64,000 nucleotides of DNA from Candidatus Heimdallarchaeum aukensis (lineage in GTDB: Archaea; Asgardarchaeota; Heimdallarchaeia; Heimdallarchaeales; Heimdallarchaeaceae), in the NCBI GenBank assembly GCA_021513695.1, contig CP084166.1:832001-896000 (forward strand). Reading direction: 5' to 3'. This document shows, piece by piece, positions 25,897-61,658 of this stretch; the first letter of the stretch is position 1; each line of letters begins with the position of its first letter. The notes beneath the pieces are model-generated. The model searched no databases. It was not told the DNA's origin and was given only the letters and a program-made list of their open reading frames with translations. Both the position numbers and the translations under genes were made by a program.

Positions 25897-26778
25897 TCAA
25901 ACAAAGGGGAATTCATCAATTTTAATTTTGCTAACGTGTTTAATAATATACTCACGCTGTTCTTTAGTAAATATTTTTTCAAATTTATTTCGCTTTTTGT
26001 TTTCTATTTTCTCATTTACTGATTTCTTCCAAGGTTCATTAGTTAAAACAATATTTTTTACCTTTTCTTTGTAATCTGTAACCATTTTTTCAGAGAAACT
26101 AATACCAAGAAAGTTACATATGTCTCTTAAAGTCTTTGATGGTTGTGTCGTTAATCTGTCATAGCTTGTGAAAATGTGATTTTCATGATTAATATATTTC
26201 TTGCTAAATAAGATTGCTTTTTTCCACTTATTAATACACTGGTCAATAGTATATCCTCCTTCCCATATTTCAGGAAATTTTGATGAAACATCGTATAGAG
26301 ATGAAACAACATCACAACCATCTCTTATTAAATGAATAAACCTTGAATTTTTTACTAATTTATCAATGTAGTCAACATAAAAAAGATGATCTGGAGTTTT
26401 TTCAACCCAAGCTAATTTGTGATTATCAAGTGTATATTCATCCAGTAGTTTGACAAAATATTTTGTGTATTGCTTTATTGTATATAAATTTCCTAAAGTA
26501 TCCCTATTATTGTTCAATTTTAAACTATCTTGAAATTCTTGTAATCTCTTCTTTGCTCGTGGGTGACCTAATGTCACATTTAGAAAGAAATTGTTTCCTA
26601 ATATGTTTCTCACGAACTTTGGGGAGATAACATAAGGAATTTTAGGTAGTAAGTAAATAAAGAAATGTGATTCAGGAAATGAAATAATATCTTCATGTGC
26701 TGCTAATAATGACTGTAAGAGGGTTGTACCTGACCTAGGGCAGCCAACAAGGAATATCCTTGATTTAATTTCATTCAT
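25897..26778 (-). CDS. PAPS-dependent sulfotransferase (paralog 1)
   Basis: 5'-PSB loop GCPRSGTTLL and 3'-PB motif IRDGCDVVSS. Confidence 0.75.
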   Translation of the reverse strand: MNEIKSRIFLVGCPRSGTTLLQSLLAAHEDIISFPESHFFIYLLPKIPYVISPKFVRNILGNNFFLNVTLGHPRAKKRLQEFQDSLKLNNNRDTLGNLYTIKQYTKYFVKLLDEYTLDNHKLAWVEKTPDHLFYVDYIDKLVKNSRFIHLIRDGCDVVSSLYDVSSKFPEIWEGGYTIDQCINKWKKAILFSKKYINHENHIFTSYDRLTTQPSKTLRDICNFLGISFSEKMVTDYKEKVKNIVLTNEPWKKSVNEKIENKKRNKFEKIFTKEQREYIIKHVSKIKIDEFPFV

Positions 26779-27356
26779 ATATGGCTTGTATTGTTTTCCT
26801 TAAAATGTTTTTTTATAGAAACAGATGTTAGTACTCAACTAATATTGGTAATAGGAAAATATTGCAAATTTATTCAACTTTGTTAATTCTGAAAAAAGAA
26901 TTATTTAGGAATTTATTTACATTCATCTTTTAGTATTAAACGCTTTGATTGCATTTTATTACTGCATGTAGTCTGCCACCTGGTAACAGTATCTTCAGTT
27001 TCAGCTCTTGTTCTTCTGATAAAAATAGGATTAAGAAGTAATTTGCTATTAAAATAACATACTAGAACTGATTGCAATGTTTAATTATCCAGAAGGAAAA
27101 GACTACATTATTGCTTCTTCTCTTATGCGAATATAGTAGATTTCTTAGCTGTGGTCTGTATTACTAAATATGAACTACTTTTAGTATGCCATTCTCATTT
27201 ATTTATTAGTCAAAATAGAATTTTTGTACTTTTTCTTATTCATATATTCTGTCCATATTATAAATTAATAAGTCTTAATAGAAGATTCTATGATCTCTAT
27301 AATCTTGTGTTTCAAATGTTTTTAGCTGATATTATCGAAAAACAAAATATGAACAT

Positions 27357-28577
27357 TTAATCACAAGGATCCATTTCACATTTTTTGAGATATTGTTTTC
27401 TTAAACTTTCTAGACTATAAATAAATTTGTTTACTATACTATCCCAATCATAGCTTGATACAAAATTCAAACCTTTTTCACTAATCTTATCTTTAAGATC
27501 TAATGTTTCATTAACAACAGAATAAACATCTGTTGGTTTATCAATATACAAGATTCCATTGTTTTCTCCGAATTCTTTGTATACACCTTTTAGCTTTGTA
27601 CAAATAACAGGATTTCCAGCAGCTAAATATTCATACAGTTTAATAGGAACTATATTTTCCATAATTTCGTTTTTATGTGCGGGTAATAAATAGTAATCTG
27701 CTGCTTGTAAATATATTGGTATGTCTTTGAATGGAACCTGTCCAGTCAATATTATTTTCTCTGGATTTTTTAGCTCTTTTCTTTTTATTGAGATATAATC
27801 GAATAAATCTCCTTTACCGACAATCAATAACTTATATTTGTCTAAATCATCTTCATTTTTAACCATGTAATCTGTTAATTCTTTTAATCCTGAGAATTCA
27901 TATAACCAACCCATGAACATTAATACTATATCATCTTTCACAATTCCTAATCTTTTTCGAATTTGCTCTCTTTGAACTTTTGAGGAATATTTTTTAAGAT
28001 CAACACCGCCTGGTATATATACACCTTTTTCCAGATTAGCCCCCATACTCACAGAGTAATCCAGTAAACCATGATTTATTACATATATTTTATCACAATT
28101 TTTAAGAGTTCTTTTTTCAAAGGCTTTGGCAACATATTGGAGCGGTTTAACAGGAAGTAGAGTATGTAAATGATCAATTAAATAATAAATAAAAGGAATT
28201 TTATAAATTTTTGATAGTTTCTGGCCTATAAAACTGTTTAATATCCCAAACCCAATAATGAAATCTGGCTGAAATTGCTTTATCTCTTTATAAATATAAA
28301 TAAAATGCATTATAGGGATCGATAAAAAGCTTAACAATGGTATTTTTATCATTCCTGGTCTTATTAGTTCAATATTTGCTTCTGAAATAATCTTTGGTGT
28401 AGCCTTAGATTTTTTTGTAGGCTCAAATATTCTCTTAGATTGCTTTTCTTTCCATAAAAAGTCATAGTCAATAACTTTGACTTCATGCCCTAAAACGCTT
28501 AATCTTTCCATTAGATGGTGTTGTTGATGAGGGCCTCTTAGTTCCCAATCTGTTTCTTGAAGAACTAGTATTTTCAT
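27357..28577 (-). CDS. family-4 (GT-B) glycosyltransferase
   Basis: Two-Rossmann-domain glycosyltransferase with E..AG.PVI-like C-terminal motif (YEYLAAGNPVI). The start is set at internal ATG 28577 (MKILVLQ...). Confidence 0.7.
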   Translation of the reverse strand: MKILVLQETDWELRGPHQQHHLMERLSVLGHEVKVIDYDFLWKEKQSKRIFEPTKKSKATPKIISEANIELIRPGMIKIPLLSFLSIPIMHFIYIYKEIKQFQPDFIIGFGILNSFIGQKLSKIYKIPFIYYLIDHLHTLLPVKPLQYVAKAFEKRTLKNCDKIYVINHGLLDYSVSMGANLEKGVYIPGGVDLKKYSSKVQREQIRKRLGIVKDDIVLMFMGWLYEFSGLKELTDYMVKNEDDLDKYKLLIVGKGDLFDYISIKRKELKNPEKIILTGQVPFKDIPIYLQAADYYLLPAHKNEIMENIVPIKLYEYLAAGNPVICTKLKGVYKEFGENNGILYIDKPTDVYSVVNETLDLKDKISEKGLNFVSSYDWDSIVNKFIYSLESLRKQYLKKCEMDPCD

Positions 28578-28699
28578 ATTATCCTTTCCTATGTCTAAAC
28601 TTGATAAGAAAAAATCACTTATTAGTTTAACGTTTGAGATAAGAAATATGAAATTATTCATTATGTATTATGTAAATGAAAGTTCCGAAATTTATTCAT

Positions 28700-28715
28700 G
28701 GTAGTGTCTAGTTTT
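28700..28715. repeat. IS left terminal inverted repeat
   Basis: GGTAGTGTCTAGTTTT is the exact reverse complement of 29447-29462. It resembles the IS26-type IR GGCACTGTTGCAAA (GGxAxTGT). Confidence 0.7.
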
Positions 28716-28755
28716 CTTCCGACAAAAATATTTGTGGGGACTCTAATAGTAAGAT

Positions 28756-29454
28756 ATGAAAACACAAAAACTATCTGCTCTTTTTAAGAGATGCAGAGTC
28801 CCCAAAAAAATAATAATAAAAGCGATTTATGAATATATTGATTCAAAGAATGGGTTGAGGACAGTAGCATGGAAGAATGGTTTAACGCATCAAACATTAT
28901 GGTATTGGGTAAAGAAGTTCAGGCTCTTTAGGGAAAGTTTACATAGAGTTGTAGCAGAGAGAGGGGGAATACCAGAGATTATAGTAGTAGATGAAACAGA
29001 GATTAGGACCTCTCAAGGCTCAATATATCTGTGGTTCGCGTTAGATCCTTACAACAAGACTTTACTGGGTTTTAGTATTACTAAAGGACGGAGTAATCTT
29101 GAATGTTTACTAACTTTCCGTTATTGGTTCAAATGTTGGGGTTTTAAGCCCCGTATTGTCGTTACAGATGCAGGAGTATGGTATCCTGTCTTACTTCGTC
29201 TCGGTATCAAAATCTCCGTTATCAAAGGTGGTTTACGCTCCTATATTGAACGTTTTAATGCTACTCTTAAGAGTTATCGTTGGTTTCATTCTATTCTCCA
29301 CTGCACTTGTCCTATCCGTGCCGTCTATGGCTCTACTCATCTTTCTGGTTTTCTTACTCTCTTTATGCTCCATTATAATTTCGTTCGTCCTCATCAGAGC
29401 TTGGGACATCCTCCCCTTAGTTCCTTTTTACCTAGGAGGTGGTATAAAAACTAG
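28756..29454 (+). CDS. IS6-family DDE transposase
   Basis: VVDETEIRTSQGSIYLWFALDPYNKTLLGFSITKGRSN parallels the IS26 DETYVKVNGRWAYLYRAVD...DFYLS block. VVTDAGVWYP parallels TDKAPAY. ERFNATLK parallels the conserved ERxNxxLK. Confidence 0.65.
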   Translation: MKTQKLSALFKRCRVPKKIIIKAIYEYIDSKNGLRTVAWKNGLTHQTLWYWVKKFRLFRESLHRVVAERGGIPEIIVVDETEIRTSQGSIYLWFALDPYNKTLLGFSITKGRSNLECLLTFRYWFKCWGFKPRIVVTDAGVWYPVLLRLGIKISVIKGGLRSYIERFNATLKSYRWFHSILHCTCPIRAVYGSTHLSGFLTLFMLHYNFVRPHQSLGHPPLSSFLPRRWYKN

Positions 29455-29462
29455 ACACTACC
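29447..29462. repeat. IS right terminal inverted repeat
   Basis: AAAACTAGACACTACC. It overlaps the 3' end of the transposase ORF. Confidence 0.7.
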
Positions 29463-29477
29463 GATACCAATATAGTA

Positions 29478-29493
29478 ATACTTTAAAAAGGAT
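29478..29493 (+). promoter_or_regulatory. TATA-like box (ctttaaaaagg) about 25 nt upstream of the GT2 start codon, between the IS end and the gene
   Basis: A/T-rich TATA-like hexamer at archaeal promoter spacing. This implies a leaderless or short-leader transcript. Confidence 0.3.
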
Positions 29494-29511
29494 TAATTTG
29501 AAGTTGTAGTA

Positions 29512-30684
29512 ATGGAAAACAATATATTAAAAAGGATAGGTATATTCAGTTCAGCTTTCTCTCTCTTATTAATTGCAGTTATAGTTTTTAGTTTTGTAAT
29601 AAGAAAAATAATTCTAATGATAATTATTTGGTTTAATAGAATATTTGAATCCTCAAGAATTCCAATATTGAGTATTTTCATAATATCACTAACCATACTT
29701 TTAACTTTTGGAATAATCATATTTATCTTAGGAGAGTTTTATGATTTTTTTTTCCGTAAATATCCAAGTCTTTTATTAGATAAAAAAGAATATTCATTAA
29801 CTGAAAGTGATAAAAAGAAAATTTCTGTAATAATACCTGCATACAATGAAGAGAAAACTATAGAGAAAGCAATAAAAAGCGTAAAACCTTATTGTAACAA
29901 TATTATTGTTGTAAATGATGGCTCTACTGATGATACAGCAGCTATAGCTCAAAAAAATGATGTTGTTTTAATTAATCACAAATTAAATATGGGATTAGGA
30001 ACATCTTTAAGAGACGGAATTAACAAAGCAATAGATCTTAACTCAGAAATTATTATTAATTTTGATGCAGATTTGCAGTATGTAGCTGAAGAGATAGAAT
30101 ACATGGTCTATTATATTATTCATGAAAAATATGATTTAATTATGGGATCTAGGCTTAAGGGTAAAATCGAAAAAATGTCGTTAATAAAAAAGTTTGGAAA
30201 TAAATTATATACAAGATTGTTGAGATACTTAACTCGATTAGGGATTTCAGACGGACAAACAGGTTTTAGGGCATTTACTTCTGATTTTGCAAGAAAAATA
30301 ATGATTCGTGGTGATTATACTTATACTCAAGAAATGATTTTAGAAGCAGCTGCTTGCAAAGCAAAAATAGGAGAAGTACCTATAAGCTTTAACAAAAGAA
30401 AATATGGTAAATCGCGTTTAATGAGAAACCCTTTACACTTTGCAACTTCAAGTGGTATTTTCATATTAAAAGTCCTAATAGATCTAAATCCCTTAAAAAT
30501 ATACACATTGTTTTCTGTGTTTCTATTTCTTACAGGATTTTTTGTTGGAGGGACTGAAATACTAGATTGGTTAATTACCTCTACGTTAACAAATCCAAGT
30601 TTGATTATTCTTGGAATAATAATAATGATGACAGCTTTAATAATAAATAGCATTGCTTTGTTATTTGCTTCAACAAAGAGGTGA
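29512..30684 (+). CDS. family-2 glycosyltransferase with GtrB/DPM1-like architecture (polyprenyl-phosphate sugar synthase-like)
   Basis: N-terminal TM region. GT2 core ISVIIPAYNEE...VVNDGSTDDT with DAD (DxD) motif. Two C-terminal TM helices. Confidence 0.75.
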   Translation: MENNILKRIGIFSSAFSLLLIAVIVFSFVIRKIILMIIIWFNRIFESSRIPILSIFIISLTILLTFGIIIFILGEFYDFFFRKYPSLLLDKKEYSLTESDKKKISVIIPAYNEEKTIEKAIKSVKPYCNNIIVVNDGSTDDTAAIAQKNDVVLINHKLNMGLGTSLRDGINKAIDLNSEIIINFDADLQYVAEEIEYMVYYIIHEKYDLIMGSRLKGKIEKMSLIKKFGNKLYTRLLRYLTRLGISDGQTGFRAFTSDFARKIMIRGDYTYTQEMILEAAACKAKIGEVPISFNKRKYGKSRLMRNPLHFATSSGIFILKVLIDLNPLKIYTLFSVFLFLTGFFVGGTEILDWLITSTLTNPSLIILGIIIMMTALIINSIALLFASTKR

Positions 30685-30749
30685 TAGTAAATTACTTTGT
30701 AACTCTTCCTAAATGGAAATCATTCTTGAACTTAAGAGGTTATACATAT

Positions 30750-31943
30750 ATGAATAATAAGAAGAAAAATATTGCTATGATTGTCTATTCACATTTTGAA
30801 AGCGATGTAAGAGTAAAACGAGAAGCTTATTCCCTAAGTTCAGAAGGATACAATGTTTATTGTATTTCATTAAGGCTCAAAAATGAAGAGAGATATGAGG
30901 ATAGAAATGGAGTAAAAGTAATAAAACTATTTAAGTGGTTATCAATAATTCCAAAAGGCTCTCTATTGAGATATATTATAGGTAGCTCTCTCTTTATTTT
31001 GGCTTCGTTTATAGAATTATTAAAGATTAAGAAAAGTAAAGTAAATTTTCATGTAATTCATATTCATAATCCCCCAGACCACTTAATATTGTCTGGTTTA
31101 CTGTTTAAATGGATTTATAATGCAACTTTAGTTTTAGATAGACATGAACCTTTTGCTCTCCAAATTGTAAGTAATCTTGGTAAAAGTGAAGAATCTATCT
31201 TATATAAGATTTTAAGCGCTTATGAATGCATTGTCTATAAATTTGTAGACTATTTTATAGTTGTAAACAATATTGAGAAAAATGATGTACGATTGATAAC
31301 TAATAATAAACCTGTATATACAATAAGAAATTCATTTAATAATACTATCAATAACAATAAAATCCAAGGAAGAGAGAGAGTTGAAAATGAACATCATTTT
31401 TTAATTTTATATCAAGGTTTTATATCAGAGAGAAGAGATATTGATACACTTATTGAAGCAATTGACATATTAAGAAAAAAATATAGTGACATCAGATGCT
31501 ATATAATTGGAGACGGTGATTACTTACAAAAATCTATAGATATGGTAAAAAAAAGAGGGCTTTCAAGTTTCATCTATTTTCTTGGTTGGTTAGAACAAAA
31601 TGAACTTTTCAAGTTTATTGAAAGGTCACACGTTTGCTTGATCACTTTAAAAAACATTCCTGTTTATCAAAGAGCCACTCCTAACAAACTTTTTGAATAT
31701 ATGTATTTTAAAAAACCTATTATTGCAGCAGACTTACCACTAATACGTAATTTATCAGAAAATCAATGTGAATTATATGAACCTGGAAATTCTAAAGATT
31801 TAGCTAAAAAAATAATTAAGATAAGAGAGAACATGACATTATTCAAAAAGAAAACAGAAGAGTATGAAAAAATATTAAGTAAGAATCTATGGGTTGTAGA
31901 TGAGAAGAAATTAATATTAATGTACAGAAAAATAATAGGGTAA
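30750..31943 (+). CDS. family-4 (GT-B) glycosyltransferase
   Basis: GT-B architecture with C-terminal E-x7-E-like region (LFEYMYFKKPIIA). The listed ORF begins at 30681, overlapping the GT2 stop (ATGA). The internal ATG 30750 is the likelier start. Confidence 0.7.
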   Translation: MNNKKKNIAMIVYSHFESDVRVKREAYSLSSEGYNVYCISLRLKNEERYEDRNGVKVIKLFKWLSIIPKGSLLRYIIGSSLFILASFIELLKIKKSKVNFHVIHIHNPPDHLILSGLLFKWIYNATLVLDRHEPFALQIVSNLGKSEESILYKILSAYECIVYKFVDYFIVVNNIEKNDVRLITNNKPVYTIRNSFNNTINNNKIQGRERVENEHHFLILYQGFISERRDIDTLIEAIDILRKKYSDIRCYIIGDGDYLQKSIDMVKKRGLSSFIYFLGWLEQNELFKFIERSHVCLITLKNIPVYQRATPNKLFEYMYFKKPIIAADLPLIRNLSENQCELYEPGNSKDLAKKIIKIRENMTLFKKKTEEYEKILSKNLWVVDEKKLILMYRKIIG

Positions 31944-31961
31944 TTATCATTAAATAAAAGT

Positions 31962-33860
31962 TTAGCTAACAGATAATATGGGTCGTAAATCCCAAACCCA
32001 AAAATGTTCAGTTGAAAAGATGACAGAAGAAACTCTGCTTAAAGAACTAATAAAATATGAATCAGTAAAAATAGTAGAATATAATTCTATTATTGATGAA
32101 TTTGCATAGCTAACAAAAAAAGAAAGATTCAGTTGTTGAATTATTGATCGAGCTTCATGTGAATCTGCTGGAAGAGAACTTAAAGTTTCTAGAATAATTC
32201 TACCTGTCGAGAGATTACTAGAGAAAATGTATTGCTCCCACCACATATAAATTGGTCGTATTTTAGTTTTGTTCTCAATTGTAGATGCATTATAATAATC
32301 TATTAGAAGTAAGGAAATACTATGTACATCTGCTAAATCATAACAACCAGCTAGAACAGATAGCCTTATTCCAGTTGCCCTATTACATGAGGCTATTAAA
32401 CTTCCAGAAAAATTATTAAAGAACTTTGCTAGCTCTATCTCTTCTTCTGTTAATTCAGAGTTGTCAAATGGAGCATTTGTTCTAGTTCTATAATCTATTT
32501 GCCAATTTAAATAATATCTGGAATGTACTAAAAGTTGAAGAACAATTAACAAAACTAATATTCGATACAAAGCCTTTTTTGATAAAATGAAATTCAATTT
32601 TCCTTCAAATAGAACACCAACTGAAAAAACAAGATATGCAACTCCAAAAATTATGAAAATACTCAAATAGAATTTTATATCGCTAACATATAGGTCTAAT
32701 AATAAAAAACTAAAGATTACAGAAAAAGATAAAAGGAAAAGGTAAGAGCATTTCTCAAATTTTAATATCATGTTATGTTTATAGAGAAAAACGTCTATAA
32801 AATAAATTGCAAACAAAACAGGTAATAATGATAATATATATATAATATAATGATTTGAAATAAATAGAATCAGAGGAAGTTGTAAATAAGTTAATTTTTT
32901 TATTCGTCTATTCAATAAAGGAGAGGTTATATTTTCATGACTAACATGTAGGAAGAAACCAAATAAAGCTAAAAGAGAAACGAAACCCCATCCATTGTAA
33001 ATAACAAAACCAAGTATGTAAAGAAAATAATTTACTAAGTCATTATTGGTATATAGTGTTTTGGAAACTCTTGTGATATTTACATATTGATTAAAAAAGA
33101 AACCAGAAAATATAAGTATCAATGCTGAAATTATAACAATATAAGAAAATTTATCATACATAAACTTTTGAACTCTTCCTTTATTTAATTTATACTTTGA
33201 ATTATTTTTAAGTAATTTTTCAATAATCAAAAAAAATCCAACTAAAAATAAAAGCAATGTGTATGCTGTACTCATTCTATGAAAAAGGGACATTAAAATA
33301 AATACCAATGTCGCTTTAAAATAAGATGAAAATTGCTTTTTTTCTACTGTTTTTAGCAAATGTATAAAAAATAGAGGAATTAGTGCAACAAATGGAAACC
33401 TTGCAGATGCTAAATTATAGCTGAAATAGATTATATATGGGATATTTATGAAAAGTAAGCTTCCGATTATTGATATTATTGGTTTTTCAAATATGAATTG
33501 AAAAAAAGTAAAAGAAGCATAAGCTGAAATAATTAACCATAAAATAACAAAAACATTAACAGCTAGAATTTCATTATGAAAGCATATTATATCTATAACT
33601 CCATATATAAATAAAGATCCTATGGGGTAAGGAGAAAATGGATAAGCTCCTAGTAAGCTGAAAGGATGAATAATTAACTTTGTTACATAGCTTGAAAAGA
33701 ATAATCTACTTTCCCAAATTAAATACCATGAATCGGTAAAAAGAGGACCTTTGTGTGTTGGAATTCTTAAAACATAAGAGATAATAATAATTATAACAAT
33801 AAATATTAATTTATTAAGATGTTTTCGTACAGTGAATTTCATGAAAAATCTCCTAATCAC
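31962..33860 (-). CDS. large polytopic membrane protein (632 aa) with C-terminal soluble domain; candidate GT-C glycosyltransferase or Wzy-like polymerase
   Basis: Many TM helices plus a ~190-aa hydrophilic C-terminus. No AglB motifs. Confidence 0.5.
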   Translation of the reverse strand: MIRRFFMKFTVRKHLNKLIFIVIIIIISYVLRIPTHKGPLFTDSWYLIWESRLFFSSYVTKLIIHPFSLLGAYPFSPYPIGSLFIYGVIDIICFHNEILAVNVFVILWLIISAYASFTFFQFIFEKPIISIIGSLLFINIPYIIYFSYNLASARFPFVALIPLFFIHLLKTVEKKQFSSYFKATLVFILMSLFHRMSTAYTLLLFLVGFFLIIEKLLKNNSKYKLNKGRVQKFMYDKFSYIVIISALILIFSGFFFNQYVNITRVSKTLYTNNDLVNYFLYILGFVIYNGWGFVSLLALFGFFLHVSHENITSPLLNRRIKKLTYLQLPLILFISNHYIIYILSLLPVLFAIYFIDVFLYKHNMILKFEKCSYLFLLSFSVIFSFLLLDLYVSDIKFYLSIFIIFGVAYLVFSVGVLFEGKLNFILSKKALYRILVLLIVLQLLVHSRYYLNWQIDYRTRTNAPFDNSELTEEEIELAKFFNNFSGSLIASCNRATGIRLSVLAGCYDLADVHSISLLLIDYYNASTIENKTKIRPIYMWWEQYIFSSNLSTGRIILETLSSLPADSHEARSIIQQLNLSFFVSYANSSIIELYSTIFTDSYFISSLSRVSSVIFSTEHFWVWDLRPILSVS

Positions 33861-33961
33861 ACAAATGGCTAAAAGACAACAAAAAATATAACTAAATAAA
33901 ATTTTCTAAAAATAAATTCTAAAAAAATATTTAATTCTTAAAAAAAAATCCAAAAAAAATT

Positions 33962-36606: not shown

Positions 36607-36781
36607 ATTCGCAAAACCCTTCTTTTTACACTTCAAGAAAAAGTTAAGTATATTAATTATTCGCTTTATTAGTATCTTAATATATTCATTTAAGAGAAAA
36701 ATAACATTGAGCATTCATAACATTTATTATACATTCATTGAAAAATATAAAACAACACACTTAAAGAGAGGGTACATAGAA

Positions 36782-38962: not shown

Positions 38963-38964
38963 TA

Positions 38965-40923: not shown

Positions 40924-40930
40924 AGGAGTA

Positions 40931-42705: not shown

Positions 42706-42847
42706 AACTGAATTTTTAGTTCAAATTTTTTAAAGTTTAAGGAAGAAGAAAAAATGAGAAAAGAAAGAGTTGAAGATTATATTTAAGTTCTATTTATAAA
42801 TTAATAACCTAGATAAAACAGATAATATGTCAGCTTAAATCTAATAG

Positions 42848-43810: not shown

Positions 43811-43827
43811 ACAATCACTTTTTAGAA

Positions 43828-44751: not shown

Positions 44752-44864
44752 TTTTAGTTCCTATCAGTATTCTTATTGACAACCTCAGATTTCTCTATAA
44801 AGATATTTCGCTTATATTCCTCAATAAGCATATGTATAAGAATTTCAAACTTATTTTTTTAAGT

Positions 44865-45998: not shown

Positions 45999-46023
45999 TT
46001 TAACACCTTGTTTAATATACTTT

Positions 46024-47400: not shown

Positions 47401-47562
47401 GTTTTCCATTCTCTCCACAAAGAAATTATTAACTATTTCATCATTTCAAAACATCAAGTCTTAAATCTTTCTTTTAAAATAACAATAGGAAATGGGATGT
47501 GTTTTAGTAGATATTCTTAAATACCTCTCTCCCTCAATTGCTTTAAGTTTCGGTGAAATATC

Positions 47563-49143: not shown

Positions 49144-49156
49144 AGATGAAATATAA

Positions 49157-53279: not shown

Positions 53280-54126
53280 TATTTTTTCTCTAGTTTGAAA
53301 TATTTTTTGATTTTTAGCTTGCTTTTTTTTCATTATTAATTCATTCCTTTTTATTTTATGATTTTTCTGTTGCGATTTACTTGAATATTTAGAAACACTT
53401 CTTCTAAATCGTAATTTAGTAGCTGATTTTGCTCTCTGTCTAAATATCATCCATGAATTATCTTTTTGTTATCTTTTCCTACTCTATCAGTGGAATGGTA
53501 CAAACGATGAAATTTAAAGGTTTCAAAGTACTAACATCATCTAGGAATTATGAGACACTATTGAAGTATTTAACTCTTCGCTCAACGAGCAGCTATAATA
53601 TTCTGATTACTAGTGAATAGGTTGATTTAAGCATCTAGTTAAGGCACTTTTAGGAATGGTTTTTTTACATCTTTTCTCATTTCCAGTACCTCTTTTTGAA
53701 CATAGTTCGTTTCTTTTTTAGAGTAGATCACATAGTTATTACCAGAATCATATATAAACTAGACATTTTTTGAAGGAAGAAAATAACTGCAAAAAAGAAA
53801 CTCAAAGTTACATTCAGCCATTTTTTTAAATAAAATCACATTTCCCCAATATTCTAAAATCATTTTTACAACATTTTCAGGACTATGATACTTCATACAA
53901 TCACTTTAAAAAGATTTGAACTTGAATTTTTACAAAACTTAAAAAAATAGATTCATAACCGAATTTCAAGAGCTTCTGCAAAGATGCACTCTCATTAGCT
54001 ACATTTATTGTAAAGATGAAAGTAACTTAAAAACATTAACTATCATTTCTTTTTATTCCTACTATATGAATAAAACAATCAATTGTTAATAAGTAATATT
54101 TTTATTTTCTATCCTAATTTTAAATT

Positions 54127-56004
54127 GTGAGATATAAAGATCCATTTCTTATTCCAATAATGCAAATTAGTAAAAAAAAGAAATTAAGGAATGAGGAAAA
54201 GATACAATTAATAGAAAATATTTTTCAGAAAATAATAAAATTTACAGGAGAAAATAGAGAAATACGAAAAAAAATAGAAGAAATAAGAAAAATCATTGCT
54301 AAGAGCGGAATAGAAATTAATAAAGAAATCAACAATTTGAACAATTTAAACGATTTAAATAATTTAAATAATTTAAACAAGAAACTCAACTTTAGTTTAG
54401 ATGAAAGAAAATCAAATATTTTTATCACTCCTTATCATCTTTCACTAATCACAAGTATTTGCTCTACAGACCCTAAAAGCAATGGAGAGTTTAACACACC
54501 GTTCTATATAGCAGAATACTTGGCAGAAAGAGCAATAAAATACTATTTAACAGAAAACAAAGCAGAAGAAAAATCAGATAACAAAACAGAACAAAGTAAA
54601 CTACTTAGATTAAAGTTTGCAGATATAGCTAGTGGAACAGGAAACTTGATACTCGCTCTCTTATATAAATTAAAAGAAAGAATAAAAAAGGAAGAAGAGA
54701 TAGAAAATGAAGAATTAATAGAGTTTATCAGTAACAACATTTATTGTTACGATAATAACCAATTAGCACTAAAAATAAATGAGCTTAGACTATTCTTATT
54801 CATCAAATTTACTATGGAAGAAGCAGAATTAAGAAAAGTAAATTTTAAAACAATAAAAACAAATACTTTGGATAAAGAAAAAATAAAGAAAAACAATTAT
54901 TTTGATATTATTTTAATAAATCCACCTTTCAAAACTTATGGATTAAGAAATGGGCAAAAGTATAGCCAAGAATTAAAGAACTATTTAAGAAAAGAATATA
55001 AGACCGCAGAGTATAAACTTCCACTTTATCCACTATTCATGGAAAGAGCAATAGAATTGTTAAGAAAAAGAGGAGTTCTTGGAGTAGTTAGCCCAGATAG
55101 TTTTTTGTTAGGTAAATATTACTCAAAAATAAGAAGTTATATTCTCAACAATACTACAATTAAAGAAATAACACTATTAGACTATGAACCCTTTGAAAAA
55201 GTAACACTAGGAAGAACAGCGCTAAGTTTCTATATGAAAAAAAATGAAAAAGAAAAAAAACAGAATCAAATAATCACGAAAAAAATAAGCAATTACCAAA
55301 CTTTCACTCACAAAAATGAGATTGATAAGAAGTACTTGAACAATGAAAAAAAATTCCTAAAAAATGATCTAAATAGATTTTTTCTGTTCTTTAATGAGAA
55401 AGAAGAAAAGATAGTAGAGAAATGGATTGAAAAAGCAGATTGTAAACTAGAAGATCTGGTAACAATCCACACAGGAATAAGAAGTAAAATAGGCCAAAAA
55501 AAGATCATTAGCTTAAAAAAACATGATGAAAATTGGAAAAAAGGAATATTATCAGGAAAACAAATAAAACCTTTTTATTTAGAATACAAAGGACATTGGA
55601 TAAATGTTGATCCAACTATATTATGGGCAGGAGGTTATAATGAGGAGATAATAGAAAATCCTAAATTGTTAATAAGACAAACAGGAGATAAAATAATTGC
55701 ATGTGTAGATACTAATGGCTATTACCACTTGAATAATATTCACTCACTTTCTCCAAAAGACGAAACAGTTGACCTTTACTCCTTATCAGTTATCTTAAAT
55801 TCAAAAGAATTTAATCAAGTCTATAGAATTTTAAGTATGGAAAAAAAAAGAACATTTGCTCAAATAGACATAGATTTTTTCCTCAAAATGCCGATAATAT
55901 ACTTTTCAAAAGAAAAAAAAACACTTTATGAATTTTATCTAAAAGAAAGCACCAAACAGAAAAAAAGAATAGAAATAGAATCATATTTATTAGATAATAT
56001 TTAA
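54127..56004 (+). CDS. N6-adenine DNA methyltransferase, gamma class (Eco57I/TaqI-like), solitary
   Basis: Motif X-like EFNTPFYIAEYLAERA. Motif I FADIASGTGNLILALL. Motif IV IILINPPF. Long C-terminal target-recognition region. Contains an N-rich low-complexity insert (NLNNLNDLNNLNNLN). Confidence 0.75.
   Translation: MRYKDPFLIPIMQISKKKKLRNEEKIQLIENIFQKIIKFTGENREIRKKIEEIRKIIAKSGIEINKEINNLNNLNDLNNLNNLNKKLNFSLDERKSNIFITPYHLSLITSICSTDPKSNGEFNTPFYIAEYLAERAIKYYLTENKAEEKSDNKTEQSKLLRLKFADIASGTGNLILALLYKLKERIKKEEEIENEELIEFISNNIYCYDNNQLALKINELRLFLFIKFTMEEAELRKVNFKTIKTNTLDKEKIKKNNYFDIILINPPFKTYGLRNGQKYSQELKNYLRKEYKTAEYKLPLYPLFMERAIELLRKRGVLGVVSPDSFLLGKYYSKIRSYILNNTTIKEITLLDYEPFEKVTLGRTALSFYMKKNEKEKKQNQIITKKISNYQTFTHKNEIDKKYLNNEKKFLKNDLNRFFLFFNEKEEKIVEKWIEKADCKLEDLVTIHTGIRSKIGQKKIISLKKHDENWKKGILSGKQIKPFYLEYKGHWINVDPTILWAGGYNEEIIENPKLLIRQTGDKIIACVDTNGYYHLNNIHSLSPKDETVDLYSLSVILNSKEFNQVYRILSMEKKRTFAQIDIDFFLKMPIIYFSKEKKTLYEFYLKESTKQKKRIEIESYLLDNI
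54334..54381. repeat. 9-bp microsatellite (aatttaaay) x5 inside the methyltransferase gene
   Basis: aatttgaacaatttaaacgatttaaataatttaaataatttaaacaag. In frame, it encodes (N/D)LN repeats. Confidence 0.7.
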
Positions 56005-56327: not shown

Positions 56328-57395
56328 TTATATTTTTTCGTTGCTAAAATCTTTATTTTTTTTCAAGTATTCTTTAGTTTCGATATTCTTTAACCACCAC
56401 TCATTTTCTAAATACCACTCTATTGTTAGTTGAATACCTTCTTCAAAATCGATTGTTGGAAACCAGTTCAGTTCATTTTTTATCTTTGAAATATCGATCG
56501 CATATCTTCTATCATGCCCTAATCTGTCTTTAACGTGTTTAATTAAAGTTTCATTAATTTTAGTGTCTTTTGTTTTCTCATATAAATAAGAAATTATTTT
56601 TTTTACAACATATATATTCTTTCTCTCATTTTGAGCTCCAATATTATATATCTCACCTATCCTTCCTTTTTCAAAAACCAAGTCGATTGCTCTACAATGA
56701 TCAGTGACAAATATCCAATCTCTTACTTGATTTCCATCTCCATATATAGGTAGATTCTTATGGTTCAATGCATTTTGTATCATTAATGGAATTAATTTTT
56801 CGGGGAATTGGAAGGGTCCGTAGTTATTAGAACATCTAGTAATATTTACTGGCATCCTATATGTATCAAAGTACGCTTTTACTATCAAATCTGCAGATGC
56901 CTTACTTGCAGAATAAGGACTATGCGGATCAAGAGGAGTTTTTTCTGTAAAAGCACCTGTAGGACCTAGAGAACCATATACTTCATCTGTTGATATTTGC
57001 AAGAATTTCTTATTTGCAATCCATTCTTCATTGTGATACCAATTTTTTTTACATATTTCAAGAAGTGAATATGTGCCTAAAATATTTGTTTGAAGAAATA
57101 TTTGTGGATTAGCAATAGATCTATCAACATGGGATTCTGCAGCGAAATTAATAACTCCATCTATATCTTTATAGGTTTCAAATATTTTCCTTAATAACTC
57201 AAAATTATTAATATCTCCTTTAATAAAAATAAACCTTGACTTTTGATCTTCAGTTAAATTTTTCCAATTTTCAACGTTACCAGCATAAGTAAGTTTGTCG
57301 ATACCAATTATTTCTCTATCAGGATATCTATCAAGATAATAATAAAGAAAATTACTTCCAATAAATCCTGCAACGCCAGTTACTAATATTTTCAT
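56328..57395 (-). CDS. rfbB: dTDP-glucose 4,6-dehydratase
   Basis: MKILVTGVAGFIGSNF, the YSASKASAD catalytic motif, and length 355 aa. Confidence 0.85.
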   Translation of the reverse strand: MKILVTGVAGFIGSNFLYYYLDRYPDREIIGIDKLTYAGNVENWKNLTEDQKSRFIFIKGDINNFELLRKIFETYKDIDGVINFAAESHVDRSIANPQIFLQTNILGTYSLLEICKKNWYHNEEWIANKKFLQISTDEVYGSLGPTGAFTEKTPLDPHSPYSASKASADLIVKAYFDTYRMPVNITRCSNNYGPFQFPEKLIPLMIQNALNHKNLPIYGDGNQVRDWIFVTDHCRAIDLVFEKGRIGEIYNIGAQNERKNIYVVKKIISYLYEKTKDTKINETLIKHVKDRLGHDRRYAIDISKIKNELNWFPTIDFEEGIQLTIEWYLENEWWLKNIETKEYLKKNKDFSNEKI

Positions 57396-57418
57396 TCCTA
57401 ATACTTCCTCTATGTTTT

Positions 57419-58267
57419 TTATTTGATCAATTCAATTTCCTCTAAAAATTTGATAGTAGCATCTTGCCAAGAAGGTAGTTTGTATCCAATTACTTCTTCT
57501 AAACCAAATGGGTCTAAAACTGATAAGAAAGGTCTTTTAGCAGGTGTATTAAACTCATGAGAGAGAGCAGGAAGAAGCTCTCCTTCCCACTCTATTTTAT
57601 TTAATATATATTCAGCCCATTGATATCGTGAACAATATCCAGAATTTGTCATATGATACAACCCATAATTTTCTGTTTTTATCAAGTTGTAAGTTGCATC
57701 TACAATATCGTTTGTATAACTTGGTGATGATATCTGATCAATAACGATTCTTATTTTTTTTCTATTTCTACTCCATTTTATAGTTTTAGTTATAAAGTTT
57801 TCATTACCTTTCCCAAAGACCCAGCTTAACCTTACTAAAAAAAACCTATTAGCGATATTTTGTACATTCTTTTCACCCAGCACTTTACTTTCTCCGTATT
57901 TTGAAATGGGAGATGGTTTATCATAAATTGTATAGGGATAACCTTTACATCCATCAAAAACATAGTCAGTAGAGTAATGGACAAGTATAGCATCTAATTC
58001 ATTCGCAAGTAAAGCTAAGTTTTTTGGACCAAGCCCATTGATTCGATAAGCAGATTGCCAGTCATTTTCAGCATTGTCTACTGCATTATAGGCAGCACAA
58101 TTAATAATTATATCAATATCTTTATTTGAAACATATTCCCGTAATTTTTTAAAATTTGTAATATCTAATTCGACATCAGTAGCAAAAAAACTAATTCCCT
58201 TTTTTAAAAAAAAGGTTTGGAATGATTGACCTAATTGTCCTTTTGATCCTGTAATTAATATTCCCAT
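57419..58267 (-). CDS. rfbD: dTDP-4-dehydrorhamnose reductase
   Basis: MGILITGSKGQLGQSF and the YGESK motif. 282 aa. Confidence 0.8.
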   Translation of the reverse strand: MGILITGSKGQLGQSFQTFFLKKGISFFATDVELDITNFKKLREYVSNKDIDIIINCAAYNAVDNAENDWQSAYRINGLGPKNLALLANELDAILVHYSTDYVFDGCKGYPYTIYDKPSPISKYGESKVLGEKNVQNIANRFFLVRLSWVFGKGNENFITKTIKWSRNRKKIRIVIDQISSPSYTNDIVDATYNLIKTENYGLYHMTNSGYCSRYQWAEYILNKIEWEGELLPALSHEFNTPAKRPFLSVLDPFGLEEVIGYKLPSWQDATIKFLEEIELIK

Positions 58268-58414
58268 ATAATCACCATTAAATTTTCATAAATATATCTT
58301 TTATGTGATTCAAATTTGAAATACTATAAAGCAACTCCTACGAACTAATTTCTTAATTAATGCATATATTATTCTCTTTCTTACATACCTTTTTAGCTTA
58401 ACTTCTTAATTAAA

Positions 58415-58996
58415 TCACTTTTCGTATTTAAAAGGTAATTCAATATCTTTCAAAAATGGTAATTTAGAATCTTTCTCTGAAATAATTAATCTTGAATCTT
58501 CAATCTTGTCTAAAGGCCATTTAATGTTTATATCTGGATCATTCCACCTGATTCCTCTATCATATGCTGAATAATAATAATCAGTTGTTTTGTAAACAAA
58601 TTCAGTCTCTTCAAGGGCAAGAAATCCATGAGCAAAACCTTTAGGAATATAAAACATGCGTTTGTTTTTTTCAGAAAGTTCTACACCATAATACTGACCA
58701 AAACTGGGAGAACCTACTCTTATATCAACAGCAACATCAAACACTCTTCCTTTGATTACACGTACTAATTTTCCTTGAGAGTGCTTAGATTGAAAATGTA
58801 ATCCTCGTAGAACTCCTTTTGAAGATTTAGAGTGGTTATCTTGTACAAAATCCACGTTTAATCCAATTTTGTTAAATTCCTTTTTATTATAAGTTTCCAT
58901 AAAAAATCCTCTTTCATCGTAAAAAATTACTGGTTCAATAATAAATGCCCCTTCCAATATTGTTTCAATTTTATTAAATTTTAACATATAAATCAC
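58415..58996 (-). CDS. rfbC: dTDP-4-dehydrorhamnose 3,5-epimerase
   Basis: RmlC cupin with the ...DERGFF.E...LRGLHFQ... signature. 193 aa. Confidence 0.85.
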   Translation of the reverse strand: MIYMLKFNKIETILEGAFIIEPVIFYDERGFFMETYNKKEFNKIGLNVDFVQDNHSKSSKGVLRGLHFQSKHSQGKLVRVIKGRVFDVAVDIRVGSPSFGQYYGVELSEKNKRMFYIPKGFAHGFLALEETEFVYKTTDYYYSAYDRGIRWNDPDINIKWPLDKIEDSRLIISEKDSKLPFLKDIELPFKYEK

Positions 58997-59143
58997 CGTA
59001 AATCTTTACTATAATTTTTGGATTAGTTTATCTCATAATCATGTTTATTTTTTGTCACTGTTGTACTATTGAAATGAAATTAATTTTATTCTATTAAATC
59101 TATTGAATTACATTATACTTTGTAATATGTAGATGAAAAATTT

Positions 59144-60007
59144 TTAAATAAGACTTAATAAATACCTTCCATAATCAGAATTTGAGTGCTCTTTTGCTAA
59201 ATTTTTAAGTTGATCGGTGTCAATATATCCAAGTCTGAATGCAATTTCTTCTAAACAAGCAATATAATATCCTTGCCTTTTTTGAATAGCTGCAACAAAA
59301 TTACTAGCTTCTATTAAACCATCAAATGTTCCAGTATCAAACCAAGCTAATCCACGTCCTAATAATTTGACTTTCAACTTTCCTCTTTTTAAATATTCAA
59401 TATTAAGATCAGTAATTTCTAGCTCTCCTCTTGGAGATGGTTTAAGATTTTCTGCATATTTAATTACATTATTATCGTAGAAATATAAACCAGGTATAGC
59501 ATAATTTGATTTTGGAAAAGCTGGTTTCTCTTCTATGGAGATAACATCCATAGTTTCTTCATTGAATTCTACAACTCCAAAAGCGGTGGGATTATTTACA
59601 TAGTAACCAAAGATTAAGGCTCCTTCCTTTAAAGTAGTTGCTTTTCTTAAAATTGAAGAAAAACCTTGACCATAAAAGATATTATCACCTAAAATTAGTG
59701 CAACATTATCAGAACCAATAAATTCTTTACCAACAATGAAAGCATCAGCTAACCCTCTTGGTTTTTCTTGAATTTTATATGAAAACTGAACACCAAGTTG
59801 AGAACCATCTTTTAATAAATTCTTGTAGTCTATAATATCTCTTGCTGTTGAGATAATTAAAATATCTTTTATCCCAGCAAGAAGAAGTGAAGAAAGTGAG
59901 TAATAAATCATAGGTTTATCATAAACTGGTAGAATTTGTTTTGAAATTGCTTTTGTTATGGGATATAATCTTGTTCCTGTTCCTCCAGCCAATACAATTC
60001 CTTTCAT
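59144..60007 (-). CDS. rfbA: glucose-1-phosphate thymidylyltransferase
   Basis: [36 protein letters not shown] is the canonical RmlA N-terminus. 287 aa. Confidence 0.85.
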
Positions 60008-60349
60008 TTTCTATTATAAGAAGAAAAACTCTATTCTATAAAATTTTCGTAATCATAAATCATTGTGAAATCATGAATTAATATTCTAAGGAAATACACT
60101 TCACATTTTTTTATTTTGTATTTATAAACCTAGTAAACATATTATCTATTAAGAGAAAAAAATGGAATACTAAAACATTATTAGAAACTATAATCTATTA
60201 ATGTTAGATTTGCTCGCTAACTAAAAAAATCATTGCTTATTCCTAAACAATAAAAAGAACAACTAGAAAAATAAGTATCAAAGCATTATGTTTTAAAATT
60301 TTATGTATAATACTATTTCACGTATCATGATAAGCATAAACTTGGTCTA

Positions 60350-60500
60350 ACCTACTGTAACTCCGATCTTTTTTCAACCTCTCTTACTACAATTTTAGCC
60401 TTGCTCACCAGTCTATTAACTTCCTAACTTTGGAAAATAATTTATGAACCAACCCTAAGTTTTTGACATTCAAAAGTGTAACCCCCTATAGAGAGTGAAT
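60350..60500 (+). repeat. ~165-bp non-coding element, copy B (paralog of 22868-23027)
   Basis: See copy A. Same orientation. It lies about 340 bp upstream of the rfbA start, in the operon's leader/promoter region. Confidence 0.7.
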
Positions 60501-60773
60501 ATAAGAAATAAAAGCAAAAATCAATAAAAATTTTCTTATAGGTATTGTTTCTTTTTCTAAATTACACTTCTGAATCAGAAGCTGAAGTTGTATCAGAATA
60601 ACTGTTTAAATACAAATATGATGTTACAGACTTCATAAATTGTATTTCTTGGAGTTACATCAACTTATATAATAAAATCATAATACATAGTTTAACAAAG
60701 CTGGTGACTGATAACTTATTTTAGTAAAATGTATTCTTATTTTTCATATCAATTGTTGAAAATTTTATTATTT

Positions 60774-61658
60774 TTATTCATCAAATGAATACCAATTATG
60801 TAAATCAATCTCAAATAATTTTTCGAATTTAATAATATCATCTAAAAAGTATTCATTAATTAGTTTTTCTTTTAATTCAACATTTATTTTTTTCTTGTCA
60901 AGTGGTTTTTTATTAAAGTTCATCAGTAATTTAGATAGTTTGTATCTAAAAGTTTCATCCGGAATAATACATCTGATTATTTTTTTAGCAAAATTATCTT
61001 TGTATATAAAATCTCGTATAAATTTGTTCTTTGATTCATAAGCTTCATTCTTTAAAATGTTTAAATTAAGGTCGTATTTTGGAATATCAAGAAAAGAAAA
61101 TAATTTATCGATCATCTTTTTAATGTTTAAACATAAATCGTATTCAAAATTAAAAATTATAAAATTCTTCTTATGGAAAAAATCTAGATATTTTTGAATG
61201 TTTAGATAATACATTCCTTTTTCAAGATAATTATATCTTTGATAATAGGGATGATTTGCATTTAATTCTTTTATCTCCCTTTGGATAGCTTCTTCAAAAG
61301 TTAATTTTTCATAACCTCGTCGAACATTCATTAAATAGTGAGAATATGCTCGTTCCACAGGATCTCTTACAATTAAGATAAATTTTACACCATTTCCAAA
61401 AGCATTATAGATTCTTTTTGGTACTTGCTTATAGTACAAATATTCAGGTGCTACTTCACCTAAATAGGAACTTTCATCACATTTAAAGAACGTTGAGAAA
61501 TACCAATCTAAACCTTTCTTGAACTTTCTGTCTAAATCAAAGAATCTAGTTTCTTTGATATCAGGAAGACATAACTTTGGATGCTGTTTTAGAATAGAAT
61601 GAATTGTTGTTGTTCCTGCTTTTTGAGCACCTATACAGAAGAAAGATACCTTTGGCAT
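60774..61658 (-). CDS. PAPS-dependent sulfotransferase (paralog 4)
   Basis: 5'-PSB GAQKAGTTTI and 3'-PB VRDPVERAYS. Confidence 0.75.
   Translation of the reverse strand: MPKVSFFCIGAQKAGTTTIHSILKQHPKLCLPDIKETRFFDLDRKFKKGLDWYFSTFFKCDESSYLGEVAPEYLYYKQVPKRIYNAFGNGVKFILIVRDPVERAYSHYLMNVRRGYEKLTFEEAIQREIKELNANHPYYQRYNYLEKGMYYLNIQKYLDFFHKKNFIIFNFEYDLCLNIKKMIDKLFSFLDIPKYDLNLNILKNEAYESKNKFIRDFIYKDNFAKKIIRCIIPDETFRYKLSKLLMNFNKKPLDKKKINVELKEKLINEYFLDDIIKFEKLFEIDLHNWYSFDE

Follow-up and report, generated by a model that had tools for sequence, protein, structure and literature searches.

The 64-kb stretch of DNA analysed here (the window, along which all positions are counted) comes from Candidatus Heimdallarchaeum aukensis, an Asgard archaeon, and carries a glycan-biosynthesis island in which four genes for predicted sulfotransferases dependent on 3'-phosphoadenosine-5'-phosphosulfate (PAPS) lie among genes for glycosyltransferases (GTs) and flippases. 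The reading that we consider probable is that these enzymes, which belong to four subfamilies, sulfate lipid-linked glycan units in the cytoplasm before the units are flipped across the membrane. Family membership, fold, intact active sites, solubility and a conserved linkage to GT and flippase genes are shown here, as is a PAPS synthase tied to such a cluster in a relative; which sugars are sulfated, whether this happens before flipping, how H. aukensis is supplied with PAPS and that the sulfated glycan exists at all we infer from the genes. The four genes, named ST1 to ST4, are as follows.

25897-26778, minus strand: ST1, 293 aa; Sulfotransfer_3 101 bits, Sulfotransfer_1 56.7 bits; P-loop, E36, K127, R152, S160
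42848-43810, minus strand: ST2, 320 aa; Sulfotransfer_1 50.3 bits, Sulfotransfer_3 41.7 bits; SULT-like; P-loop, S162, and E69, K129 and R154 as invariant residues
49157-50155, minus strand: ST3, 332 aa; Sulfotransfer_3 100.4 bits, Sulfotransfer_1 52.2 bits; P-loop, R161, and E34 and K136 as invariant residues
60774-61658, minus strand: ST4, 294 aa; Sulfotransfer_1 54.4 bits, Sulfotransfer_3 46.3 bits; P-loop, and K13, E36, R98 and S106 as invariant residues

The four predicted sulfotransferases

The reading frames and motifs that a preliminary description of this DNA had picked out are all present where it placed them and legible in the translations. The P-loops that bind the 5'-phosphosulfate (5'-PSB) read PRSGTT in ST1, GRSGTT in ST2, HKSGTT in ST3 and QKAGTT in ST4, and the 3'-phosphate motifs read RDGCDVVSS, RHPGAVANS, RNPYSNLVS and RDPVERAYS in the same order. 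Each protein exceeds the Pfam gathering score of Sulfotransfer_1 (PF00685, 22 bits) and/or Sulfotransfer_3 (PF13469, 27 bits), with 50-101 bits and E-values from 1e-10 to 1e-28. A six-frame scan of the window for [KR][SAG]G[TS]T matched the four P-loops and one unrelated hydrolase, and it returned no fifth sulfotransferase P-loop. GenBank already labels ST1, ST3 and ST4 as sulfotransferase (UJG41542.1, UJG41559.1 and UJG41567.1), so the identification of these three is not new.

Family alignments of 52-61 homologs for each enzyme show which of these residues are kept. In all four alignments the P-loop positions either do not vary or are conserved to at least 90%, and ST1-ST4 retain them; the Arg that replaces Lys in the loops of ST1 and ST2 is also present in the aligned TPST2 chain. 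The Arg of the 3'-phosphate pair (R152/S160 in ST1, R154/S162 in ST2, R161/S169 in ST3, R98/S106 in ST4) occurs in at least 98% of homologs. Its partner Ser is conserved in 72-100%, being invariant or almost so in three families and at 72% in the ST3 family, where the residue is Ser in 44 of 61 sequences and Ala in 15 of 61. A Glu 17-20 residues past the end of the P-loop is invariant in all four families (E36 in ST1, E69 in ST2, E34 in ST3, E36 in ST4), and ST1-ST3 share a further conserved Lys (K127, K129 and K136). All four proteins hold every residue that is invariant in their own family alignment, and in ST1 the key residues are invariant across 52 homologs.

Comparison with solved structures points the same way. 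ST1 matches TPST1/2 and the sulfotransferase domain of CurM at about 1e-10, and its E36 aligns with the catalytic E99 of TPST2, making E36 a candidate catalytic base. ST3 matches the CurM domain at 3e-13, with E34 aligned to a Glu of that domain. ST4 matches the bacterial sulfotransferase 3RNL at 6e-28, the heparan sulfate 3-O-sulfotransferase (3-OST) 3-OST-5 at 2e-14 and the N-deacetylase/N-sulfotransferase (NDST) NDST1 at 1e-9, and its K35-E36 aligns with the QE of 3-OST-5. As a single sequence ST2 reaches the PDB only weakly, at 3e-5, and its family profile reaches SULT1B1 at 3e-9; by its position and invariance, E69 would be the equivalent catalytic Glu. Structure modelling, which the preliminary description had proposed, was carried out for two of the enzymes. 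The AlphaFold (AF2) models of ST2 (pLDDT 91.5, 57 homologs) and ST3 (pLDDT 94.1, 61 homologs) each found only PAPS sulfotransferases among their top 50 PDB matches in Foldseek, with probability 1.0 and TM scores of about 0.55; the best matches of ST3 were the CurM and olefin-synthase (OLS) sulfotransferase domains, TPST, 3-OST and NDST.

None of ST1, ST2, ST3 or ST4 has a membrane-spanning hydrophobic segment. Taken together, the sequence data make ST1-ST4 soluble, cytoplasmic, predicted PAPS-dependent sulfotransferases of four subfamilies. We rejected ST1 as a true TPST, since it is soluble and of bacterial type. A TPST is membrane-anchored and extracytoplasmic; the P-loop of ST1 begins at residue 14, which leaves no room for a membrane anchor, and the best 19-residue Kyte-Doolittle mean in the protein is 1.13, within the P-loop strand.

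That the four are mutually divergent and represent different subfamilies held up: they are 20-26% identical in pairwise comparison, and HMM scores, conserved residues and solved-structure and fold matches agree. The word paralogs, which was also applied to them, is loose. They belong to one superfamily, but their nearest relatives differ, being cyanobacterial for ST1, from diverse bacteria including cyanobacteria for ST2 and from Bacteroidota for ST4. This suggests separate acquisitions and that ST1-ST4, as judged by sequence, are not recent paralogs. The ortholog of ST1 in another Heimdallarchaeaceae metagenome-assembled genome (MAG) is 53% identical and lies in a syntenic locus (L004, below); the next homologs are cyanobacterial, at 40-46%, and the nearest full-length relatives are stand-alone bacterial enzymes of about 280 aa. 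Orthologs of ST2 in Heimdallarchaeaceae are 93% and 80% identical, and homologs at 50-65% occur in cyanobacteria, Scalindua, KSB1, Actinomycetota and Promethearchaeota. Against the 80%-identical ortholog dN/dS is about 0.07, with dS saturated; ST2 is under strong purifying selection. The ST3 family comprises 186 cluster representatives at E<=1e-30, its nearest relatives are about 330 aa long, and a 96%-identical ortholog is found in two related loci (L010/L011, below). The best homologs of ST4 are 35-44% identical and come mostly from Bacteroidota, with one Lokiarchaeota protein among them.

The reading frame of ST2 extends to 43852, where a TTG start would give 334 aa. We favour the ATG at 43810 because the 80%-identical ortholog starts at the equivalent residue; an exact protein look-up found no match to the 334-aa form.

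Glycan modules and the proposed route

The island starts at about 10,979, takes up the rest of the window and continues for at least 10 kb outside it. It is more than 60 kb long, and nearly all of its genes are glycan-related. Pfam assigns three GT2, six clear GT4 and three weaker GT4-like genes to it, and three MOP (Polysacc_synt) flippases lie in the window, with a fourth just past it. We compared the island with loci of Heimdallarchaeaceae relatives from independent assemblies (L004, L007, L010, L011, L012 and L013, with L007 and L012 both on JGI contig Ga0366833_1003675) and with L005 from Lokiarchaeota. The genes closest to the four sulfotransferases are listed below (TM, transmembrane segments).

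19116-21233, plus strand: 15-TM membrane protein, 705 aa, without a Pfam or NCBIfam match; 35% identical to a 699-aa protein of L004; candidate polymerase or GT-C-like transferase
21187-22440, plus strand, and 23054-24196, minus strand: GT4 pair of the ST1 module (Pfam); L004 orthologs 66% and 59% identical
24485-25864, plus strand: MOP/Wzx-like flippase, Polysacc_synt 42.9 bits, about 10 TM; convergent with ST1
27357-28661, minus strand: GT4 adjoining ST1, Glycos_transf_1 69.7 bits; L004 ortholog 68% identical
41461-47418, minus strand: wecC (46024-47418), wecB (44865-46040), GT4-like gene of 307 aa (GT307, 43828-44751), ST2 and GT4-like gene of 414 aa (GT414, 41461-42705), by Pfam and NCBIfam
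47563-49143, plus strand: MOP/Wzx-like flippase, Polysacc_synt 26.3 bits, just below the 28.2 cut-off; between the ST2 operon and ST3
50457-51401, minus strand: GT4-like gene of 314 aa (GT314), Glyco_transf_4 28.7 bits; upstream of ST3; its 96%-identical L010 ortholog adjoins ST3
56328-60007, minus strand: rmlB, rmlD, rmlC and rmlA for dTDP-L-rhamnose synthesis (GDP_Man_Dehyd/Epimerase, RmlD_sub_bind, dTDP_sugar_isom, NTP_transferase); downstream of ST4
61842-62810, plus strand: GT2, Glycos_transf_2 69.7 bits; divergent from ST4

The interleaving of sulfotransferase genes with GT4 and GT2 transferases, three Wzx flippases and wecB, wecC and rml genes, which the preliminary description had reported, is borne out by these family assignments and coordinates. 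The genes fall into modules: ST1 stands with one flippase, ST2 and ST3 flank another, and ST4 lies with the rhamnose genes, of which the rmlA product is named RfbA in GenBank. The gene at 46024 is UDP-ManNAc-dehydrogenase-like and that at 44865 encodes a UDP-GlcNAc 2-epimerase; the gaps along the run wecC-wecB-GT307-ST2-GT414 are -17, 113, 17 and 142 nt. Because the island is modular and holds several flippases, it probably makes several differently sulfated glycans, two to four, and not one. The expectation of a heavily and differentially sulfated polysaccharide or glycan therefore stands in so far as several sulfated glycans are predicted, while a single heavily sulfated polymer is less likely.

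The linkage of sulfotransferase, flippase and GT genes is conserved in L004, L010/L011 and L012. L004 retains, at 42-81% identity, the two epimerases, a GT4 gene (GT4_434), the 15-TM protein, ST1 with its flippase and a further two GT4 genes, and the flippase that adjoins its ST1 ortholog is 42% identical to that of the window. At the edge of this same locus (L004 1-1184) lies a 1059-aa protein with an Arylsulfotrans domain (PF05935), a mark of an aryl-sulfate sulfotransferase family that works without PAPS. In L010/L011, at 93-97% protein identity, the order FG-GAP, GT314, ST3, flippase, GT307, ST2, GT414 is contiguous, with a 97%-identical flippase ortholog between ST3 and GT307-ST2 and with wecB and wecC located elsewhere. 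It is therefore probable that ST2 and ST3 work on one and the same unit, exported by that flippase. The run GT307-ST2-GT414 is contiguous in L012 as well. Farther afield, a Gloeocapsopsis genome has an ST2-like gene, and a Lokiarchaeota genome an ST4-like gene, among glycan genes.

The FG-GAP protein next to the ST3 module (51537-53450, 637 aa) is a surface protein in which seven FG-GAP/beta-propeller repeats are combined with bacterial TSP3 calcium-binding repeats and which is anchored in the membrane at its C-terminus. Conserved beside ST3 in L010, it could be a candidate glycoprotein substrate.

A route consistent with this gene content would begin with PAPS made in the cytoplasm and with nucleotide sugars (dTDP-rhamnose, UDP-ManNAc(A) and others) supplied by the island's enzymes. 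GT2 and GT4 enzymes would assemble the sugars on a lipid carrier at the inner membrane face, and each sulfotransferase would then move the sulfo group of PAPS to a specific hydroxyl of the lipid-linked oligosaccharide. In catalysis the invariant Glu would act as base, the P-loop Lys or Arg and the invariant Lys would stabilise the transferring sulfate, and the Arg and Ser of the second motif would grip the 3'-phosphate. MOP/Wzx-like flippases would export the sulfated unit, and large polytopic membrane proteins may polymerise it or pass it to surface polymers or glycoproteins. Going by the adjacent genes, we guess that ST4 acts on rhamnose and ST2 on units that contain ManNAc(A). We place sulfation before flipping because the model for the bacterial xss cluster does so (PMC8205485) and because Halobacterium salinarum sulfates a completed lipid-linked tetrasaccharide (PMC11980604).

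Sulfate might instead be added to nucleotide-sugar precursors, which GTs would then build in, but we think this improbable. The unusually strong conservation of the ST2 family between archaea and distant bacteria fits a small invariant substrate such as a nucleotide sugar, and ST2 shares its gene run with wecB and wecC. However, the ST2 of L010/L011 is flanked by two GTs and not by wecB and wecC, both precedents just cited place the modification on the lipid-linked glycan, and in the literature consulted we met no case of a nucleotide sugar being sulfated from PAPS.

The source of the DNA was also considered. Exact matches of its proteins assign the window to a 3.08 Mb contig of H. aukensis, which is circularised according to the genome paper (PMC8813620). 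The G+C content is 27.6% in the island, 25-30% in the sulfotransferase genes, 31% in the remaining window and 28% in the window overall; since the sulfotransferase genes are so close to their host, contamination is unlikely. In view of the circularised contig, the host-like G+C and the same genes in independent Logan and JGI assemblies, we rejected bacterial contamination.

PAPS supply and possible acceptors

An indirect link between these genes and PAPS comes from a Heimdallarchaeaceae relative that carries the 80%-identical ST2. Its contig, Ga0366833_1003675, has four sulfotransferases among GT4 genes and a flippase, and after this cluster come a TFIIB-type zinc-ribbon gene, a TauE-family permease and a 581-aa fusion of PUA_2, ATP-sulfurylase and APS-kinase domains (L012 11052-13746). 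The same order of permease and fusion follows the sulfotransferase cluster in a second sample (L013 2771-4226). The motifs of this PAPS synthase are intact (QTRNPIHRAH, GRDHAG, GLSGSGKT, LDGD). It is a singleton in its 90%-identity cluster, and its metagenome relatives, at 85% (L014), 89% (L016) and 72% (L015) identity, all lie on short contigs without context. The gene order in L012 and L013 thus puts a PAPS synthase, together with what is likely a sulfate permease, physically within such an island in Heimdallarchaeaceae. More widely, MAG surveys report that Sat and CysC are widespread in Heimdallarchaeia, with CysC and Sat beside TauE in one MAG and CysC beside TauE in another (PMC11193907). 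A PAPS transporter would not be needed, because ST1-ST4 are cytosolic.

These observations allow a broader proposal, which we put forward tentatively and with a little less than even confidence: that Heimdallarchaeaceae possess a self-contained system for decorating lipid-linked glycans before export, encoded in one island and made up of up to four cytosolic P-loop sulfotransferases per locus, a fused ATP-sulfurylase/APS-kinase and a permease of TauE/TSUP type. Such a system would be the first PAPS-dependent glycan sulfation in Archaea, unrelated in mechanism to the Agl30/Agl31 enzymes of Halobacterium, and the cells would be coated with strongly anionic sulfated glycans that vary between strains.

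Several points weigh against sulfation of lipid-linked glycans in H. aukensis. Neither sat nor cysC was found in the 64-kb window or in about 10 kb of flank on both sides; one hydrothermal-vent Heimdallarchaeia MAG is reported to lack Sat and CysC (PMC11193907), and H. aukensis likewise comes from a hydrothermal vent. The glycoproteome of P. syntrophicum, the only one published for an Asgard archaeon, reports no sulfated glycan (PMC11284389). For ST1 and ST3, the best-matching characterised structures belong to enzymes whose substrate is protein tyrosine or a polyketide intermediate and not a sugar. Pfam and NCBIfam searches of the window gave neither a recognisable Wzy nor AglB/STT3. The genome paper reports OST3/STT3/ribophorin genes as universal across known Asgard phyla (PMC8813620), which leads us to expect AglB elsewhere in the H. 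aukensis genome. Searches beyond the window added little: sat, cysC and sulfotransferases go unmentioned in the supplementary material of the genome paper (PMC8813620), no metagenome contig matched the DNA at the end of L007 exactly, and contig scans with the L007 TauE fragment and the L007 ST1-like protein found no Heimdallarchaeum locus.

The points on PAPS would also fit a pathway that is idle, in which H. aukensis cannot make PAPS and its intact sulfotransferase genes are recent, unused cargo of a hypervariable island. We give this only a small chance. The insertion sequence within the island and the bacterial nearest homologs of ST4, at no more than 44% identity, are in keeping with it. 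Against it, ST1-ST4 have kept all invariant catalytic residues, their genes match the window in G+C and so are not recent arrivals, ST2 is under strong purifying selection, several related genomes hold orthologs of ST1, ST2 and ST3, and one relative carries the PAPS synthase and permease beside its sulfotransferases.

The structural matches bear instead on the acceptor. Some or all of the four could be active PAPS sulfotransferases of protein tyrosines, membrane lipids or small metabolites, and their position in the island would then reflect mosaicism. Besides the matches of ST1 and ST3 to TPST and to the CurM and olefin-synthase domains, the resemblance of ST2 to cytosolic SULTs that act on small molecules speaks for this, as does the unrelated cargo of the island, an insertion sequence and a DNA methyltransferase. 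We nevertheless regard non-glycan acceptors as unlikely. The linkage to GTs and flippases persists through rearranged loci in several Heimdallarchaeaceae, one Lokiarchaeota genome and one cyanobacterium. Unlike the soluble, cytoplasmic ST1, TPST sulfates secreted proteins inside the Golgi; Pfam found no polyketide synthase (PKS) or olefin-synthase genes near the sulfotransferases; and the likeness to TPST and CurM, at E-values around 1e-10, is at the level of the superfamily. Sulfation of lipid-linked glycans thus remains the reading that we prefer.

Known sulfation systems and other features of the island

The Heimdallarchaeum system resembles bacterial sulfated-polysaccharide clusters, of which xss from Synechocystis sp. 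PCC 6803 is the best-characterised and closest analogue. That cluster encodes two sulfotransferases of different subfamilies, XssA and XssE, with eight GTs and Wzx/Wzy, and makes synechan, a sulfated exopolysaccharide with two sulfates per eight-sugar repeat, so that the number of sulfotransferases equals the number of sulfates (PMC8205485). In common with it, the window has several PAPS-type sulfotransferases of different subfamilies (PF00685/PF13469) among many GTs and a Wzx flippase; moreover, outside the Asgard archaea ST1 has its nearest homologs in cyanobacteria, and cyanobacteria are among the bacteria that hold the nearest ones of ST2. The differences are that the host of the window is an archaeon, with another lipid carrier and envelope, that no Wzy, PCP, OPX or XssQ/R/S is recognisable in it (PCP and OPX export families gave no Pfam or NCBIfam match), and that four sulfotransferases and at least three flippases suggest several glycans.

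Within Archaea, Agl30 and Agl31 of H. salinarum are the only characterised glycan sulfotransferases, and they have the alkaline-phosphatase/sulfatase fold (PMC11980604). Like ST1-ST4 they are archaeal and encoded in a glycosylation gene cluster, and each sulfates a different sugar of one glycan (PMC11980604). In contrast to the P-loop fold of ST1-ST4 theirs is a sulfatase fold, of which Pfam finds no member in the window, and whereas the Halobacterium cluster is anchored by aglB, no AglB/STT3 was detected by Pfam among window reading frames of at least 100 aa, which sets the window apart from AglB-anchored agl clusters. The earlier statement that PAPS-type sulfation of archaeal glycans is barely characterised agrees with the literature: apart from the sulfatase-fold Agl30/Agl31, Sulfolobus uses sulfoquinovose (PMC11284389), and archaeal sulfotransferases of the Pfam type remain uncharacterised according to a review (PMC11625862).

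ST4 shares with the heparan sulfate 3-OST and NDST enzymes of animals the Sulfotransfer_1 fold, an xKxGTT P-loop, a K-E-x-x-F-F region around the Glu and an R-x-P-x-x-R-x-x-S motif, at E-values of 1e-14 to 1e-9. The animal enzymes, however, are Golgi-lumenal type II membrane proteins that need a PAPS transporter, whereas ST4 is soluble and cytoplasmic. It does not fall into their clade, as 3RNL and full-length Bacteroidota proteins are far closer than the partial match to 3-OST. We therefore rejected the idea that ST4 is an enzyme of the heparan-sulfate type with affinity to eukaryotes, and sequence comparison gives no sign of a special relationship between archaeon and eukaryote. With TPST and the CurM and olefin-synthase domains, ST1 and ST3 have in common a Sulfotransfer_3-type core, the P(R/K)SGTT loop, a Glu about 20 residues past it and the invariant Lys. 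They differ in having neither membrane anchor nor PKS context, and the similarity, at 1e-10 to 1e-13, lies at superfamily level. A direct evolutionary link to eukaryotic Golgi sulfation is not supported, because the nearest relatives are bacterial and the enzymes cytosolic.

The rhizobial Nod-factor enzymes NodH and NoeE are soluble sulfotransferases that carry out PAPS-dependent sulfation of an oligosaccharide and have dedicated PAPS genes (NodPQ) nearby. L012 ties its sulfotransferases to a Sat-CysC fusion just as NodPQ are tied to these, and there are weak NoeE HMM matches at the P-loop; the acceptor and the biology of the Nod-factor enzymes differ. Equivalence to NodH or NoeE was rejected, as the NoeE matches reach at most 33 bits against an equivalog cut-off of 500.

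We found no paper linking Asgard archaea with sulfotransferases in the literature searched, and work on Heimdallarchaeia has been called for by the Asgard glycoproteome study (PMC11284389). If our reading is right, the surface glycans of Heimdallarchaeia are sulfated via PAPS, a chemistry so far shown in no archaeon, and PAPS-dependent glycan sulfation reaches all three domains. For the glycoproteomics of Asgard enrichment cultures, glycans that contain rhamnose or ManNAc(A) and carry sulfate esters would then be a concrete target. Such a coat might influence how cells of the lineage closest to eukaryotes touch one another, bind metals and are attached to by viruses.

Further genes of the island are listed below; searches of the window for tRNAs and Rfam families gave no match.

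10979-18509, both strands: island start (Pfam), with NDP-sugar epimerases/dehydratases at 10979, 16520 and 17454, a sugar-1-phosphate nucleotidyltransferase at 12017, a GT2 at 13838 and a second wecB-like gene (UDP-GlcNAc 2-epimerase) at 15065
29512-35155, both strands: GT2 (29512-30684, plus), GT4 (30681-31943, plus), PTPS_related 12-TM protein (31962-33860, minus) and GT4 (33962-35155, plus), by Pfam and TM counts
35152-36714, minus strand: MOP/Wzx-like flippase, Polysacc_synt 29.9 bits, about 14 TM
38965-40923, plus strand: 14-TM membrane protein, 652 aa, without a Pfam or NCBIfam family match

The epimerase/dehydratase pair at 16520-18509 is 79-80% identical in protein sequence to a pair from Lokiarchaeota (L005 2163-4145), and as the two hosts belong to different Asgard classes, this identity suggests recent exchange of glycan genes between Asgard lineages. 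Four polytopic membrane proteins (19116-21233, 31962-33860, 38965-40923 and 63258-64000) have 632-705 aa and 12-15 TM; three are without a family match and one has the PTPS_related match, and the fourth begins at 63258 and runs off the window. They could be candidate polymerases or GT-C-like transferases.

The insertion sequence (28700-29462) sits between GT4 and GT2 genes of the island and has perfect 16-nt terminal inverted repeats (GGTAGTGTCTAGTTTT) around an rve-type transposase reading frame (28756-29454). The methyltransferase (54127-56004, 625 aa), also inside the island, is an N6-adenine DNA methyltransferase of Eco57I/TaqI_C type with an Asn/Leu-rich low-complexity stretch and an AT skew of +0.26; a 615-aa counterpart (L007 4851-6698) lies directly beside the ST2 ortholog in a Heimdallarchaeaceae contig. 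Large proteins of the NosD/right-handed beta-helix type with hydrophobic ends occur in the glycan islands of both the window (36599-38962) and L012 (14359-16980) and could modify an extracellular polymer as epimerase or lyase. With its TTG start at 36599 the former overlaps with the flippase gene; a start that looks more plausible is an ATG inside the frame, near 36782, with a signal-like segment after it. At 8259-9800 a very acidic 513-aa protein carries a membrane segment at its N-terminus and a repeat of some 75 residues with YWYV(D/E)FY-like motifs, present about five times; it has no convincing family match. Just outside the island, at 5220-6689, a multi-pass membrane protein of 489 aa gives a weak, sub-cut-off match (E 2.7e-4) to the catalytic domain of heparan-alpha-glucosaminide N-acetyltransferase.

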